NCBI GenBank assembly: GCA_965249555.1
Contig: OZ252243.1
Coordinates: 160,001-224,000, forward strand
Length of the DNA stretch: 64,000 bases
Reading direction: 5' to 3'
Source: Nitrosopumilus sp.
Lineage (GTDB): Archaea; Thermoproteota; Nitrososphaeria; Nitrososphaerales; Nitrosopumilaceae
Below the pieces are notes generated by a model that was given only the letters and a program-made list of their open reading frames with translations, was not told the origin of the DNA and searched no databases. The position numbers were made by a program, and so were the translations under genes. This document shows positions 14,704-37,308 of the stretch, piece by piece. The first letter of the stretch is position 1. Each line of letters begins with the position of its first letter.

Positions 14704-15769
14704 TATGTATCCATGTGAATTGTTTTTATACATTTCCCACTTTTTTGCATCCCAAGGCATAGCCTTCGCTAGGGAATGCTTTCAATCAAAAGATGACGGA
14801 CATGTATCCATACGAGGCTTCTTCCTCAATGCTATCTTCATCCCTTCGTTAGAACCTATCCGCAGTTATCAACCGAGGCCTGTCCCTCAACATACAAAAC
14901 GCGACTTGCAGTCCTAACTGTAATTCTGTACAAATTCTCTCCTCTCTTTTAGCATCCAGTAAATCACTCGCAGAATCTTTGATGATGCGGCAACTGCGGC
15001 CTTTGATGATCCTCTCTTCTTTTTAATGCGATTGTAAAATTTTGTAATGTCACTGTTCTTGGCATGTATTGCATGAGAATGGACGCATTGGATAAGGACC
15101 CATCGTAGTGTCATGCTTCCCCTTTTGGTTATGCTGCCATGATGTATCGTGTCTGCAGAATTTCTGACTGATGGCACGACTCCTGCATATGCACATAACT
15201 TGTGAGAGTTGTTGAATCGGCTAATACCTGCAATTTCTGATGCGATAACTAGTGATTAGTCACCAATTCCGGGCATTGATTTTATTATCATGGCATCAGG
15301 ACTGGTCTTTACAGCAGGCATACACTCTTGAATCAATCTCTTCAATTTGCAGATTAAGATGGCCTATCTGTCGTACGAATCCGTCTATGCGATAGTCACC
15401 TAGTGAGGTGAGTCTTCTGTTGTATGTTACAGTGAACGTGACTCTTGGTATCTTGATTCCCTCCTGTAACAAAATTCCATGAACAGAATTTTTGAGAGAG
15501 GTTCTCCACTGAACGAGTTTTTTTCTGTATCTTACCAGTTGACGATGTTTTACTATTTTTTTGTTTGGAACATGGCATGTATCCTCCACGCAAAAGATCT
15601 GCTAGTATCATGGCATCAATCTTGTCTGTTTTTTTTGATGCAGCTATTGCTTTTGTAAGATATTGGTTTGACAGTATTACGTTTTTGTATCCCAATTCAT
15701 CTGTAAGAAATCTATACGTGTTATACCAAACTGATGATGATTCCATGACAATGTTTGCATGAATTGGTA
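14704..15769 (-). mobile_element. IS110/IS1111-family element, 5'-truncated and frameshifted copy
   Basis: Near-identical to ~33453..34530; right end ATTCACATGGATACATA and 3' non-coding region retained. Confidence 0.95.
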
Positions 15770-32058: not shown

Positions 32059-32955
32059 CTATGTTTGTCGAGGTAAATGCGTAGAGGTAGTAATAGATAC
32101 AATGAAACTCTCAAATATTTTTGTGTTATCGGGTCCTTGGTTCTTCAAATGTATTATTGAGCGAACATATAATTCCCATACCCAATACCATAATTCAGAA
32201 TGTAAATCAATTAATTCAACATTTAGTTTTAGGATTTCTTTGGCTTCTTTGTGATTTATTACCTTTCCGTGTGATTTGTATGTCTTTCCATCAGATAACC
32301 ACTTTGCAACATTCTCTGCTTGTTTCGGATTTTCTTTTAACATGTATTTTGAGAGCCAATTTTTTGCAAAACATTCTGCATCAGCTATTGCAGAAGTACA
32401 TATAGAAATTATTTCAGGTCGTACTTTTTGTAACATTGATAGATACATGTTTGGAGGATCACCTGCTTTTACGTTCTTTCTTACCATTTCCAATCCGTCA
32501 ATAAAAGAACGTGCAGGTATTAGAGGATCTCTCAGCAATGATATTTGTGGATCAATCGGACCTAATTCTGCAAGATATCCCATCATGATTTTATCCGATC
32601 CAAGGCACATCATTGTTGCTGCACTTTTTGCAAAATTTGGAACAATCACAGTAAAACTTTCAGTGAACCTTTCTCTGCACATAGAAAGTAGTTTTTCTGC
32701 AGCGTTACCACTACCTCCAGAAGAGTTTAAAATCAAAATTCCTTTCTTAGAATCTCCAGTAGAGCGCAATAGATCTTCAAATGGAATTACGTCGTCATTA
32801 TTAATAGCTGCATATGGATGTTCAGGATTTGCAAAATAACATATTACTTTACCGTTTAACTCGTCTTCAATTAATTTGATTAACTTTTTACGAGTTATGT
32901 GATCATTTTCATTTAAAATTGATGTAAAAATTGGATCTGTAATTATGTCTTTCAT
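32059..32955 (-). CDS. SDH-family Clp-fold serine protease
   Basis: LILNSSGG, VPNFAKSAATMMCLGSDKIMMG..AELGPIDPQ, SHGKVI. Confidence 0.9.
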   Translation of the reverse strand: MKDIITDPIFTSILNENDHITRKKLIKLIEDELNGKVICYFANPEHPYAAINNDDVIPFEDLLRSTGDSKKGILILNSSGGSGNAAEKLLSMCRERFTESFTVIVPNFAKSAATMMCLGSDKIMMGYLAELGPIDPQISLLRDPLIPARSFIDGLEMVRKNVKAGDPPNMYLSMLQKVRPEIISICTSAIADAECFAKNWLSKYMLKENPKQAENVAKWLSDGKTYKSHGKVINHKEAKEILKLNVELIDLHSELWYWVWELYVRSIIHLKNQGPDNTKIFESFIVSITTSTHLPRQT

Positions 32956-33101
32956 GTGTTCGAGATAAAATCACATCGGAGATGTATGGGTTTATCTCTT
33001 GTATCCAAGGCATCTAAAATTTGTTGAAGTTCGTCAAGATTATTAGTCTCCTTTTTCCCTTGTCTAATTGTATCTTTTACAAAAGTTTCTAATGACTGCA
33101 T
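32952..33101 (-). CDS. 49-aa protein translationally coupled to the SDH protease
   Basis: MQSLETFVKDTIRQGKKETNNLDELQQILDALD...; its TGA overlaps the protease ATG (ATGA). Confidence 0.55.
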   Translation of the reverse strand: MQSLETFVKDTIRQGKKETNNLDELQQILDALDTRDKPIHLRCDFISNT

Positions 33102-33325
33102 GTTATAGTTATGTTAAACACCTAAATAAATAAATTTCCCAGTCCAAAATTTTTATGTTAGATCTATTACTTAGGCTCTCCATCTTTCAAGATATATAAC
33201 TATATGTGAATACCAAAAGAAGGAATTCAGATAGCATAGGAAATGAACCCAGGTCCAGGAGTCGTAATCCATCGTCCTCAAAGAAAAAGCCAAAGAAACA
33301 GATTAGGGCAAAAAAAGACAAGTGC

Positions 33326-34321
33326 ATGTATGTTGGCATTGACTTGCACAAGGAATTTCTTCAAGTAGCAACAATGGATAATGACGGAAAGATATTACAA
33401 AACATAAAAGTTGAGAACACTCATGAATCAATCAGGAAACATTTTACAGACATACCAATTCATGCAAACATTGTCATGGAATCATCATCAGTCTGGTATA
33501 ACACGTATAGATTTCTTACAGATGAATTAGGATACAAAAACGTGACACTCTCAAACCCATATCTTACAAAGGCAATAGCTGCATCAAAAAAGAAGACAGA
33601 CAAGATTGATGCCAAGATACTGGCAGATCTTTTGCGTGGAGGATACATTGCAACATGCTATGTTCCAAACAAAAAGATAGTAAAACATCGCCAGCTGGTA
33701 AGATACAGAAAAAAACTCGTTCAGTGGAGGACCTCTCTCAAAAATTCTGTCCATGGAATTTTGTTACAGGAGGGAATCAAGATACCTGGAGTCACGTTCA
33801 CTGTAACATACAACAGAAGACTCGCCTCCCTAGGTGACTATCGCATAGACGGATTCGTACGACAGATAGGCCATATCAATCTGCAAATTGCAGAGATTAA
33901 TTCAAGAGTGTATGCTGCCGTAAAGACCAGTCCTGATGCCATGATAATAAAATCAATGCCCGGAATTGGCGATTACTCGGCACTAGTTATTGCAGCAGAA
34001 ATTGCAGGTATTAGCAGATTCAATGACTCTCACAAGTTATGCGCATATGCAGGAGTCGTGCCATCAGTTAGAAACTCTGCAGACACGATACACCATGGCA
34101 GCATAACCAAAAGGGGAAGCATGACACTACGATGGGTTCTCATCCAATGCGTCCATACCCATGCACTGCATGACAAGAACAGTGACATTACAAAATTTTA
34201 CAATCGCATTAAAAAGAAGAGAGGCTCATCAAAGGCCGCAGTTGCCGCATCATCAAAGATCCTGCGAGTGATTTACTGGATGCTAAAAGAGAGGAGAGAA
34301 TTTGTACAGAATTACAGTTAG
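33326..34321 (+). CDS. IS110-family DEDD recombinase/transposase
   Basis: YVGIDLHK, VMES, KTDKIDAKILA, PGIG, AYAGVVPSVRNSA; start placed at MYVGID. Confidence 0.95.
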   Translation: MYVGIDLHKEFLQVATMDNDGKILQNIKVENTHESIRKHFTDIPIHANIVMESSSVWYNTYRFLTDELGYKNVTLSNPYLTKAIAASKKKTDKIDAKILADLLRGGYIATCYVPNKKIVKHRQLVRYRKKLVQWRTSLKNSVHGILLQEGIKIPGVTFTVTYNRRLASLGDYRIDGFVRQIGHINLQIAEINSRVYAAVKTSPDAMIIKSMPGIGDYSALVIAAEIAGISRFNDSHKLCAYAGVVPSVRNSADTIHHGSITKRGSMTLRWVLIQCVHTHALHDKNSDITKFYNRIKKKRGSSKAAVAASSKILRVIYWMLKERREFVQNYS

Positions 34322-34490
34322 GACTGCAAGTCGCGTTTTATATGTTGAGGGAAAGCCTCGGTTAATAACTGCGGATAGGTCCTAATAAAGGGATGAAGAT
34401 AGCATTGAGGAAGAAGCCTCGTATGGATACATGTCCGTCATCTTTTGATTGAAAGCATTCCCTAGCGAAAGCTATGCCTTGGGATGCAAA
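34322..34490 (+). ncRNA. Putative bridge/seek RNA of the IS110 element
   Basis: Two GAGG-loop-CCTC hairpins flanked by segments matching target and donor junction; terminal GCATTCCC/GGGATGC stem with GAAA-loop hairpin; conserved in the second copy (~14745..14913, minus). Confidence 0.75.
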
Positions 34491-34563
34491 AAAGTAGGAA
34501 ATGTTTAAAAACAATTCACATGGATACATATAATCTGCAAATAAAATAATTATTTTGTAGAAT

Positions 34564-37308
34564 ATGAATCCCGAAGATAAAGCCCGTCAGAATATTGATA
34601 AAATGCTGATTGATTCAGGCTGGATTATTCAAGACTATGAGAATAGAAATCTCAGTGAAGGATTGGGGGTAGCAGTTAGAGAATACCCATTAAGTAAAGA
34701 TAATGCAGATTATGCCCTTTTCATTGATTCACAGCCAGTTGGGGTGGTTGAGGCAAAAAAATACGGACATACACTTAGCGGTGTAGTTGAGCAATCCGAA
34801 AAATATCTAGATGGATTATATGAAAAATTTGTCAGTACTCCCATAAGACCTCCATTTTCCTATGAAACGACTGGTATTGAGACTAAATTTGCAGACAGGC
34901 GTGATCCTGATCATCGTTCTCGTTATGTCTTTACATTTCATAGACCCGAATTACTACAAGAGTGGTTACAAGAAGACAAGACATTGCGTGCAAGACTAAA
35001 ACAGATTCCCGAATTAAATTTTGAAAAACTTTGGGACTGTCAGACTGAAGCAATCATAAATTTAGAGGACTCACTTTCACAAAACAAACCACGTGCATTA
35101 ATTCAGATGGCAACAGGTTCTGGCAAGACAATCACAGCAGTAACTTCAATTTATCGATTAATTAAATTTGCAAAAGCAAAAAAGATTCTATTTTTAGTTG
35201 ACAGGTCAAATTTGGGTAGACAAGCGTTACGTGAATTCCAACAGTATGAAACACCTGATGACGGTAGAAAATTTACTGACTTGTATAACGTACAACTATT
35301 ACAATCACACACAATTGATCCTGTTCCAAAAGTTGTAATCTCTACAATTCAAAGAATGTTTTCAATTCTAAAAAATAATAAAGATTATGAGGATGAAAAT
35401 GATGAATTTTCATCATTTGAAGATTCACAAGATGCGACTCCAGTTGAAGTACATTACAATGAAAATATACCAATTGGAGAATTTGATTTTATCATAATTG
35501 ATGAATGTCATCGTTCAATCTACAACAAATGGAAGCAGGTATTAGATTACTTTGATTCATTTTTAATTGGATTAACTGCAACCCCTTCAAATGATACTGT
35601 GGGATTTTTCAACAACAATCAGGTAATGAGATACACCCATGAAAGAGCTGTAGTTGATGATGTTAATGTTGGATATCACGTATACAGGATTAAAAACAAA
35701 ATTGGGGAGCAAGGAGGCACTATAGATGCAGGTCAATTTGTTGAAAAAAGAGACAGACTCACGCGGAAATCTGAGCAAGAGTATCTGAATGAAGATCTAA
35801 TTTATACACCAAGTGACCTTGATAGGTCAGTAGTAGCAAAAGATAGCATCAGACTAATTATTAGAACATTCAAGGAACGGTTATCTGAAATTTTTCCAAA
35901 CAGGACTAATGTTCCTAAAACCCTGATTTTTGCAAAAGACGACGCTCATGCAGAAGATATTACAGAAATTGTAAGAGAGGAATTTGGACTAGGAAATGAA
36001 TTTTGCAAAAAAATCACTTATCGTACAAAAGAAAAACCAGAGGAATTAATTACCTCGTTTAGAAATTCACCAATGCCCAGAATTGCAGTAACAGTTGACA
36101 TGATTGCAACTGGAACTGACATCAAACCATTAGAATGCATTATTTTTATGCGAGATGTCAAAACAAAGAATTACTTTGATCAAATGAAAGGAAGAGGGAC
36201 CCGAAAGATAGCAGATGATGATTTGATTGCAGTTACTCCTGATGCCAAAGCCAAAACTCATTTTGTCATAGTTGATGCGGTAGGCGTTTGTGAGCATACA
36301 ATGACTGACACTCACTCTTTATCTAAAAAACCAGGTGTTTCTTTCAAAGTATTGCTGGATAAAGCAACTGACAAAAATGCAGATGCAGACGATGTTGAGA
36401 GTTTGATTTACCGATTGTCCAGACTGAACGGAAAATTAAGTCAGGACGATAAAGATGAAATAAGCAATGCAAACAACGGAAAAACTCTGACAGATATTGA
36501 AAAAACATTGCTTGACGGAATTGACGCAGACAAGACACTAGAAAAAGCAAAAGAGCAGTGTCATACAGAAGAGCCAACAAATGAGCAGCTTAGAACTGTA
36601 TCAAAACAGATGATTGATGAAGCATGCAAGGTATTTGATTCGGCAAAACTACGAAAGACAATCCTTGACATCAAAAGCAAAAATGAGCAAATCATTGATG
36701 ATGTATCCATTGACGAATTGCTAGAAGCAGGATTTGTAGATAAAGTACAGAATATTGATAAAAAGACAGTTGATAACTGGATTGACTTTGTAGAGAAAAA
36801 TAAGGATCGAATTATAGCACTTGACATCATCTACTCCAAACCATATAGGATGAGAGAAATCACATTTGCAGATATTCAGAATCTGGCCAGTGCAATTGAG
36901 AAACCCCCGTATAATTTGACTCCTGAAATGCTTTGGAATGCATATCAGAGACTGGATAAATCAAAGGTGAAAAACAATCCCGCCAAAATGCTGACTGATT
37001 TGATATCTATTGTACGATATTCTGCAGGAAAAGAAGAATCATTATTGCCGTTTTCAGAAATAATTACAGAGAAATTTGAAAAATGGTTAACTGCCCAAGA
37101 ATCTTCTGGACGAAATTTTACATCAGAGCAAAAAGAATGGCTTGTAATGATTAAAAATACTATTGCAAGTTCTGTCTCAATTGGTATTGATGCACTAGAC
37201 GATGTGCCATTTAATCAGAAAGGTGGCAGAGTAAAGTTTTATGAAATATTTGGAGATGACTATGAAAAGATATTAGAGGATCTGCATGAGGCTCTGATTA
37301 ACCAATAA
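34564..37308 (+). CDS. hsdR: Type I R-M restriction subunit
   Basis: ADY...VVEAKK nuclease motif, MATGSGKT, DECH, QMKGRGTR. Confidence 0.97.
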   Translation: MNPEDKARQNIDKMLIDSGWIIQDYENRNLSEGLGVAVREYPLSKDNADYALFIDSQPVGVVEAKKYGHTLSGVVEQSEKYLDGLYEKFVSTPIRPPFSYETTGIETKFADRRDPDHRSRYVFTFHRPELLQEWLQEDKTLRARLKQIPELNFEKLWDCQTEAIINLEDSLSQNKPRALIQMATGSGKTITAVTSIYRLIKFAKAKKILFLVDRSNLGRQALREFQQYETPDDGRKFTDLYNVQLLQSHTIDPVPKVVISTIQRMFSILKNNKDYEDENDEFSSFEDSQDATPVEVHYNENIPIGEFDFIIIDECHRSIYNKWKQVLDYFDSFLIGLTATPSNDTVGFFNNNQVMRYTHERAVVDDVNVGYHVYRIKNKIGEQGGTIDAGQFVEKRDRLTRKSEQEYLNEDLIYTPSDLDRSVVAKDSIRLIIRTFKERLSEIFPNRTNVPKTLIFAKDDAHAEDITEIVREEFGLGNEFCKKITYRTKEKPEELITSFRNSPMPRIAVTVDMIATGTDIKPLECIIFMRDVKTKNYFDQMKGRGTRKIADDDLIAVTPDAKAKTHFVIVDAVGVCEHTMTDTHSLSKKPGVSFKVLLDKATDKNADADDVESLIYRLSRLNGKLSQDDKDEISNANNGKTLTDIEKTLLDGIDADKTLEKAKEQCHTEEPTNEQLRTVSKQMIDEACKVFDSAKLRKTILDIKSKNEQIIDDVSIDELLEAGFVDKVQNIDKKTVDNWIDFVEKNKDRIIALDIIYSKPYRMREITFADIQNLASAIEKPPYNLTPEMLWNAYQRLDKSKVKNNPAKMLTDLISIVRYSAGKEESLLPFSEIITEKFEKWLTAQESSGRNFTSEQKEWLVMIKNTIASSVSIGIDALDDVPFNQKGGRVKFYEIFGDDYEKILEDLHEALINQ

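Follow-up and report, generated by a model that had tools for sequence, protein, structure and literature searches.

The element and its gene

The window analysed here is a stretch of 64,000 nucleotides (nt), positions 160001-224000 of the single 2.23-Mb contig that makes up a Nitrosopumilus genome (G000). Window coordinates are used below, except for copies of the element elsewhere, which are named by their genome position. At 33198-34525 the window contains what is very probably an apparently intact IS1111-type insertion sequence (IS) of the IS110 family, carried by a Nitrosopumilus-like ammonia oxidiser and encoding a guide RNA in its 3' region. We refer to it as the focal copy. The host genome encodes an archaeal AmoA (390 bits), and a protein search with the transposase finds relatives at 77 loci (45-87% identity), almost all of them in metagenome-assembled genomes (MAGs) of Nitrosopumilus or Nitrosopumilaceae. 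This agrees with the thaumarchaeal host that an earlier note on this DNA had proposed. The features of the element are:

33190-33197 (+): left target (LT) with the shared T (33197); in the focal copy just A-T agrees with the left guide GGTTAAT
33198-34525 (+): focal IS1111-type element, 1328 bp with the shared T counted once; a T also stands at 33197
33198-33211 (+): left end, a 6-nt extension AACTAT followed by the subterminal inverted repeat ATGTGAAT (33204-33211)
33229-33237 (+): internal left-end motif AGATAGCAT, a 9-nt same-sense copy of the module-2 5' loop (34396-34406)
33329-34321 (+): transposase gene, 330 amino acids from the ATG, starting MYVGIDLHK (Pfam and structure alignment)
34317-34385 (+): module 1, the putative target-binding loop (fold and consensus structure with compensatory changes)
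34336-34346 (+): right-target guide (RTG), the 11-nt 5' loop strand of module 1, antisense to the right flank
34360-34368 (+): left-target guide (LTG), GGTTAA plus T and then an invariant AA, same sense as the left flank
34391-34436 (+): module 2, the putative donor-binding loop, with closing stem GGATG/TGTCC and a hairpin at 34407-34420 (consensus structure)
34396-34406 and 34423-34429 (+): loop strands of module 2, the 5' strand AAGATAGCATT and the 3' strand with ATGGATA
34462-34478 (+): conserved segment CTAGCG...GCTATGCC, in which GCTAT (34471-34475) can pair with the module-2 5' loop
34514-34525 (+): right end, the subterminal repeat ATTCACAT (34514-34521), the extension GGA and the shared T (34525)
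34526-34535 (+): right target (RT) ACATATAATC, flank outside the element, matching the RTG
14709-15769 (-): second copy in the window, 5'-truncated and frameshifted (query positions 304-1384, 93.4% identity)

The open reading frame (ORF) spanning 33206-34321 (+) is the single ORF of the element region. Its product matches PF01548 (E 6.9e-25, 88.1 bits, cut-off 29) and PF02371 (E 7.2e-21, 74.8 bits, cut-off 21.3), which supports the IS110-family, IS1111-type identity assigned in the earlier note. The protein can be aligned to the solved recombinases of IS621 (8wt6) and ISCro4, and the GID, ME, KTDKIDA and P----S motifs, some residues of which we take to be catalytic, are retained. From the left end to module 1 the focal copy has 373 open codons. 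The transposase frame is open for 41 codons 5' of the MYVGIDLHK start (33206-33328), a Lys/Arg/Ser-rich stretch with a GTG start inside the subterminal repeat.

Assuming translation from the ATG at 33329, the non-coding DNA amounts to 204 nt downstream of the gene (34322-34525) compared with 131 nt upstream (33198-33328). A longer non-coding region downstream of the transposase gene is described as a trait of IS1111 elements (PMC11187229), and their subterminal inverted repeats are described as 7-17 bp long (PMC11208160). In the focal copy the repeats ATGTGAAT and ATTCACAT are 8 bp long and lie inside the extensions AACTAT and GGA, and TAAC[T/C]ATATGTGAA at the left end is kept among the relatives. 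Both an RNA located 3' of the coding sequence and the subterminal repeats had been recognised before.

Two homologous modules in the 3' region

The DNA behind the gene can be folded into two modules. In module 1 an outer stem GTTAGGAC/GTCCTAA and a closing stem CGCG/CTGCG lead to an internal loop, inside which stands the hairpin GAGG-GAAAG-CCTC (34347-34359). The second GAGG/CCTC hairpin, at 34407-34420, belongs to module 2. Both hairpins lie where the earlier note had placed them, as do all the strings that it quoted.

The stems clearly covary. In 16 diverse sequences with 31 pairs, 97.3% of the pair cells hold standard pairs compared with 32-47% when the partners are slid, and 12 of the 31 pairs have changed on both sides, a number that none of 500 shuffles reaches. 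The helix between GCTAT and the module-2 5' loop (helix 5) is paired in 93.8% of the cells, with two of its five pairs changed on both sides. Among 17 copies the per-site diversity is 0.279 differences in the guide loops and 0.052 in the rest of the RNA, i.e., a 5.4-fold difference, with the highest values in the hairpin loops and the two guide loops. The hairpin loops are also where the earlier note had seen several of the differences between two copies. We read the region as a bridge RNA or seekRNA, in which two homologous internal-loop modules would be encoded in the 3' untranslated region; this carries the same high confidence as the reading of the whole element.

Guides of module 1 change together with the target flanks

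A blastn search of 33150-34600 against the genome gives nine near-full copies, including the focal one, and about 35 fragments, all at 88-99% identity, and the genome yields 21 left ends and 29 right ends of the element. With the RNA region as a DNA query against 60 relatives, matches are found in just four other genomes, all of them weaker. In total 77 RNA modules were parsed, 17 from this genome and 60 from relatives.

For the RTG we used the longest exact run between the reverse-complemented guide and the shared T plus flank, and as controls pairings with guide classes that differ at four or more positions. The mean run is 6.79 nt (67 unique flanks, 26 guide variants) compared with 3.53 nt in 1405 mismatched-class pairings, and the same-sense control has a mean of 3.94. 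Runs of at least 6 nt occur in 73% of the own pairings and in 3.2% of the controls, and none of 2000 permutations of the class labels reaches the observed mean. The 17 flanks of this genome alone, in nine classes, also give 0/2000. A tally of own, sibling and neither stands at 115, 14 and 22, but its register was fitted to the copy's own guide and the tally is biased towards it. In the focal copy the reverse complement of the guide, AACATATAAAA, matches the flank ACATATAA (34526-34533) over 8 nt. The second copy has the guide TTTTGTATGTT at 14899-14889 and the right flank ACATACAA at 14708-14701, again with an own-guide run of 8 nt.

The LTG behaves in the same manner. Its suffix run against 41 unique left flanks is 3.98 compared with 1.12 in the controls (0/2000 permutations), and the base beside the T agrees in 40 of the 41 flanks, with A, C, G and T all occurring. 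Thus, module 1 corresponds to the target, as the earlier note had it, and the covariation of guide and flank that it asked to be checked in more copies and relatives is found over 77 modules, far above the permuted controls.

The single example on which that proposal had rested is less convincing. TTATA (34338-34342) facing TATAA in the focal copy, and TTGTA facing TACAA in the second copy, are real, but the rule holds in just five of seven comparable copies. At this fifth loop base the four copies with the G-guide TTTTGTATGTT all have C in the flank (4/4). The A-guide TTTTATATGTT is also present in four copies, where the flank has T in the focal copy, C in two and is unrelated in one, i.e., one of three comparable copies follows the rule. 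The one-base case is weak, and the overall claim of covariation is carried by the wider data.

Natural variants of the module-1 loop include TTTTGTATGTT/GGTTGAT and TTATGATTGTT/GTTTTTT, and natural pairs of guide and target include GGTTGA-T-ACATACAAAA, GATTTT-T-ACAATCATAA and GGTTAA-T-ACATATAAAA. At least 10 guide variants exist within one genome, and 16 of the 26 distinct right-target guides have an own flank with a run of at least 7 nt. By all appearances the guides are naturally re-aimed, and the natural reprogramming put forward in the earlier note is thereby upheld.

The same agreement would be seen if the loops were copied from the flanks after insertion, for instance by gene conversion between LT-T-AAC and LTG-T-AAC, in which case they would be a record of the targets and have no part in choosing them. 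At the DNA level the module-1 3' loop does resemble a left junction (X6-T-AAC), the loops are far more diverse than the remaining RNA (0.279 vs 0.052), and we know of no mechanism by which guides change. However, there are many independent insertions with one guide and one motif, such as the L039 family with its 9-nt run in 10 of 12 unique flanks. In the genome of L039, the MAG G061, the relatives are flanked by ...TGC-T on the left and (T)GATTCATAC on the right. Uninterrupted TGCT(T)GATTCATAC occurs there 185 times, compared with 0 for a reversed-pattern control, which suggests that a short repeat or IS end is very abundant there, and so many empty target sites are what a guide-directed choice predicts. 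Furthermore, simple conversion does not yield a guide antisense to the flank, as the right guide is, and in the experiments described for ISEc11 and IS621 the guide determines the target (PMC11187229; PMC11208160). We therefore regard copying from the flanks as very unlikely.

Exact ends and the crossover

Similarity among the copies begins at TAACTATATG, i.e., (A/T/C)TAACTATATGTGAAT, and stops after CACATGGAT. On the right, 16 of the 29 flanks continue with GGATACATAC (ACATAC); in the remaining 13 the similarity ends immediately or somewhere in this string of six. Reconstruction of the empty sites gives LT-T-[AACTATATG...CACATGGA]-T-RT, with the left tip AACTAT and the right tip GGA. The copy 710478 (genome positions 709346-710681) sits in an IS66-type end. 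Removing [AACT...CACATGGA] together with one T restores GAAGGTTGATACATAC, and at least four uninterrupted IS66-type ends of this kind, CGTGAAGGTTGATACATAC, exist elsewhere in the genome. In the same way the copy 282301 restores ATTGATGATTTT-T-ACAATCATAACA, for which there are three uninterrupted paralogues ATAGATGATTTTTACAATCATAACA with one mismatch each. The empty sites consist of the left flank, one T and the right flank, without any target duplication beyond the shared core. From these uninterrupted paralogous targets it follows that the focal element is 33198-34525, with one shared T. For the focal insertion itself the genome has no paralogue of the empty site within two mismatches. None is found among 120 genomes of the genus either, where the best match to the left flank (G126, 89-90%) stops at 33168 and the right flank is not adjacent to it.

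The earlier note had framed the element as TATGTGAAT...ATGGATACA, with a TA core on each side, ATAAC as the left target and ATGGATACAT wholly as donor end. Its strings exist, TAAC precedes TATATG in 21/21 left ends, and GGATACATAC is present in the 16 right flanks just mentioned. However, this frame restores neither the IS66-type end GAAGGTTGATACATAC nor the thrice-uninterrupted repeat, and removal of [AACT...ATGGA] plus T restores both. The 13 divergent right ends depart within ACATAC, directly after GGAT, and module 2 keeps the same ATGGATACAT in copies with flanks such as AATC... and AATTAC.... Judged by the uninterrupted targets, the proposed left end is off by 5 nt and the proposed right end by 4 nt. 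The TA core is in the wrong place, as it is always a single T that is shared, and the circle junction predicted from ATAAC-TA-[TATGTG...GGATACA]-TA is incompatible with these targets. Likewise, ATAACTG in module 1 (34365-34371) had been matched to the left flank ATAACTA (33196-33202). The former, rather than a match to the left target, is the loop tail T-AA(C), invariant across families and in all 77 modules, and the latter includes the element's own first bases. There is hardly any chance that this frame is correct.

The ends given here lead to a predicted circular donor junction ...CACATGGA-T-AACTATATG..., in its longer form ...AATTCACATGGA-T-AACTATATGTGAAT.... No abutment of right end and left end of the focal family occurs in this genome. 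Abutments of a right end with ATGTGAAT in L068, L097 and L032-L037 were considered as circle or tandem junctions and rejected, since they represent L097-type elements inserted in the left tip of L023-type elements.

In the targets the shared T is followed by A in 50 flanks, by G in 10 and by T in seven. Dinucleotide cores (TA, AT, CA) and fixed guide registers were tried, and none fits every copy. In G061 every insertion comes after TGC-T, at sites with one T as well as at those with two. Thus, the left guide seems to set the position of the cut, and the right guide seems to tolerate a shift.

Module 2 and the donor ends

The AT[G/A]GAT of module 2 agrees with the right end CACAT[G/A]GAT in 76/76 records (55 with G, 21 with A). 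Guide and right end of the element therefore change together, and this concordance supports the assignment of module 2 to the right end of the donor, already made in the earlier note. That note had also pointed to the identity of the 10-nt ATGGATACAT at 34423-34432 with 34520-34529. The identity is real, but its last four bases, ACAT (34526-34529), are flank. The CAT(G) that follows AT[G/A]GAT(A) in module 2 is constant in copies with very different flanks, so 34526-34529 is flank that matches by chance. GATACAT is contained in the IS66-type end, the commonest target in this genome. By our own estimate a 10-nt repeat alone, in an AT-rich element of 1.3 kb, is close to chance expectation, and its significance comes from the other copies.

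On the other side of module 2, the 5' loop is in concordance with the left tip in 49/49 records, across one deep split. The motif AGATAGCAT inside the left end and the module-2 loop change together in the L054, L062 and L065 families and, by eye, in L076 and L079, but not in L022.

By analogy with ISEc11 and IS621 we suggest the following mechanism. Module 1 would pick the target. Its 3' loop strand (about 6 nt plus T) equals the left DNA sequence and would pair with the bottom strand, and this pairing would set the crossover at the T. Module 2 would hold the donor through AT(G/A)GAT(A), the element's right tip. Strand exchange by the DEDD/Ser recombinase would follow, with the circular donor junction ...CACATGGA-T-AACTATATG... 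as one partner and the target LT-T-RT as the other. That the RNA is produced, that the protein binds it and that it directs excision and insertion are all three steps that we infer from the DNA.

How far the copies follow their own guides

Several observations weigh against the reading as an RNA-guided IS1111-type element. The focal transposase has the C-terminal motif GVVPSVRNSA, i.e., G--P----SA, which ends in SA. The IS1111 motif is described as GL-P----S(t)G with occasional TA, and SA is absent from that description (PMC11187229). No Rfam family matches 33100-34650 in a search up to E 10, apart from two chance-level matches (E 5.7 and 8.2). The copies inside one genome are related, so counts overstate their independence. 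The donor and all targets have just a single T in common, not a dinucleotide. The RTG match is offset from this T by 0, 1 and 2 nt in 28, 15 and 18 of the 67 flanks, respectively, which a rigid IS621-like geometry would not predict. The focal LTG GGTTAAT has a suffix run of only 2 against its left flank (4/7 positions). The candidate right-donor guide, the module-2 5' loop, has just 4-5 bases complementary to the left-tip TAAC[T/C]AT, and it may pair inside the RNA, with GCTAT, instead of with the donor. Finally, an own-guide right-flank run of at least 6 nt is found in only 11 of the 22 RNA-bearing copies of this genome. The mismatching copies include six 3' fragments with one breakpoint and upstream sequence, as well as rearranged copies.

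This last observation could mean that the RNA is a relic, with copies spread by IS66-type composites, by recombination between copies or by a guide RNA acting in trans, and that the focal RNA did not place the focal copy. In addition to the 11/22 mismatching copies, two RNA-less right ends match a guide borne by other copies over 9 nt, which also hints at guide action in trans. Seven copies have 28-31 nt of an IS66-type left end at their left tip, the six RNA-bearing 3' fragments have a common breakpoint and upstream sequence, and the long open frame is kept in only three of the nine full-length copies. However, these three intact-frame copies, the focal one, 710478 and 282301, do follow their own guide, with right-flank runs of 8, 7 and 10 nt. 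The RNA scaffold differs at 0.052 per site compared with 0.11-0.17 in the last 100 codons of the gene, a rough baseline that frameshifted copies may inflate. Moreover, action in trans would remain RNA-guided. A relic RNA is in our view improbable, and we keep to the reading of an element with a probable guide RNA.

The targets are often ends of other insertion sequences

GGTTGAT with ACATAC[A/C]AAA, the guides met most often, spell the inverted-repeat tip of an IS66-type element (GGTTGA-T-ACATAC). This IS66-family element has the ends GTATGTATCAA...TTGATACATAC, a length of 1441 bp and 47 left ends in the genome. It encodes a 449-amino-acid DDE_Tnp_IS66 transposase (Pfam), has 11-bp inverted repeats GTATGTATCAA and, in one copy examined, is flanked by an 8-bp direct repeat. 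One locus, L098, lies outside the window at G000:C1:97700-99200 (element about 97720-99160). Three tandem copies about 1450 bp apart are located near 2204396-2207296, and short derivatives with the ends only also exist. A further site, ACATCTAA, lies about 20 nt in from the IS66-type right end and is matched by the guides TTTTAGATGTT and TGTTAGATGTT.

The seven copies with an IS66-type left end have these 28-31 nt fused to the left tip as ...CACAAATCAA-T-AGCTATATG. The fused left ends are at 94831, 1240012, 1247646, 1854355, 2194411, 2210563 and, in a diverged form, 2071119, and G replaces A at the second element base. Two full-length fused copies end in GGAT-ACATAC, so that the composite bears both IS66-type tips. 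Such a composite might have arisen by a guided deletion, followed by movement by the IS66 enzyme; in one case inspected by eye, no direct repeat is seen around the composite.

In sister MAGs (L032, L035, L036, L037, L084, L068, L097) one IS1111-type family has inserted precisely within another's left tip, ...CACATGGA-T-ATGTGAATAAG.... Elements of the L097 type target their L023-type relatives at the left tip, where both L097-type guides fit TAACTA-T-ATGTGAA. As the guides spell the left tip of another IS1111-type family, the L097 type is, judging by these sites, an IS targeting its own relatives.

It can be speculated, with the odds against it when all parts are taken together, that the lineage follows looser rules than IS621. 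A single shared T would suffice, the left guide would fix the cut and the right guide could be 0-2 nt out of register. In addition, a fast-evolving library of target loops within the genome (about five times the diversity of the scaffold) would be chasing the ends of IS66-family and sister IS1111 elements. If true, the element would be a guide-diversifying parasite of other transposons, and the left-end motif that repeats the module-2 loop in the same sense would belong to an undescribed way of recognising the donor.

Relation to known systems

ISEc11, ISPa11 and ISKpn4 (Siddiquee et al. 2024, PMC11187229) are described with the same general design, i.e., a DEDD transposase of about 330-340 amino acids, subterminal inverted repeats, a long non-coding region downstream of the gene and natural re-aiming between relatives. 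The order of the guides is also shared, since in the IS1111 seekRNAs described there the guide complementary to the top strand is 5' of the other, as is found here. Unlike these elements, the present one has a Nitrosopumilus host, a C-terminal motif with SA instead of SG/TG and at least 10 guides in one genome, and it is known from sequence alone. The protein is only distantly related to the ISEc11 type; among the annotated genes of the plasmid set it matches haloarchaeal ones of the IS110 family best, ISHvo9 included, at 33-37% identity. ISHvo9 was also considered for a comparison of the RNA modules and dropped, as it is too diverged by eye.

Like the bridge RNA of IS621 as described by Durrant et al. 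2024 (PMC11208160), the RNA would have target and donor internal loops, with bottom-strand pairing on the left and top-strand pairing on the right. However, it is encoded at the right end of the element (at the left end in IS621), and the order of the guide strands in the loop is reversed. In IS621 a CT dinucleotide core is described as lying within all four pairings (PMC11208160). Here, one T is common, the register of the right guide shifts by 0-2 nt, and the right-donor guide is a candidate only. A known IS1111-type element prefers the terminal inverted repeat of another transposable element, similar to the present case, where the prey is the IS66 family and related short repeats. Unlike in that element, other guides here aim elsewhere in the same IS66-family element, and guides in the sister MAGs aim at the left tip of IS1111-type elements.

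Natural re-aiming has already been described for ISEc11 and ISXne4, and archaea are stated to carry IS1111-type seekRNA elements (PMC11187229). The number of archaeal IS110 recombinases is put at 662 in a preprint. A full-text search found no published guide RNA of the IS110/IS1111 family in Nitrosopumilus and no thaumarchaeal bridge RNA or seekRNA, although the supplements of PMC11187229 and PMC11208160 may list archaeal IS1111 RNAs. The RNA-guided mechanism is already known from bacteria, and there is no new kind of system here. The element does come with an unusually rich natural series of guides and targets in one archaeal lineage, and with hints of looser crossover rules.

RNA-guided IS110/IS1111 recombinases are under development as tools for genome writing, and the worked examples are nearly all bacterial. 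In this lineage a compact archaeal enzyme of 330 amino acids comes with dozens of natural guide/target pairs, with junctions fixed exactly by empty sites. These pairs bear on how many bases must pair, what slack is tolerated in the right guide and whether a single shared base is sufficient for crossover. Nitrosopumilus genomes have been noted as IS-rich (PMC13343696). An apparently guided element of these marine ammonia oxidisers, with the ends of other insertion sequences as its prey, is relevant to how such genomes are shaped.

Neighbouring genes and rearranged copies

The focal copy lies 38 bp upstream of a gene for a type I restriction R subunit (ResIII, EcoEI_R_C, HSDR_N; 34564-37308, +) and downstream of a gene for a ClpP-like SDH-type protease (32059-32955, -). 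In G126, the closest of the relatives found, the left neighbour is retained and the right neighbour is not adjacent.

Six fragments, at 2219668, 2075544, 1839073, 1584120, 57115 and 1558715, consist of the last ~515 bp only, i.e., the end of the gene, the RNA and the right end. All six begin at query position 867, have 100-230 nt of unrelated upstream sequence in common and carry five different right-target guides, with flanks that mostly do not match. A sister family with a diverged gene was considered as their origin and rejected, as just these ~100-230 nt upstream are in common. Another fragment, the seventh, is located at 1661095; it begins at query position 868, one base further on, and the sequence upstream of it is different. 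In the copy at 505020 (-) the 5' half of module 1 is fused to the 3' half of module 2 at the look-alike GAGG/CCTC hairpins, and this copy is a deletion by recombination between the modules.

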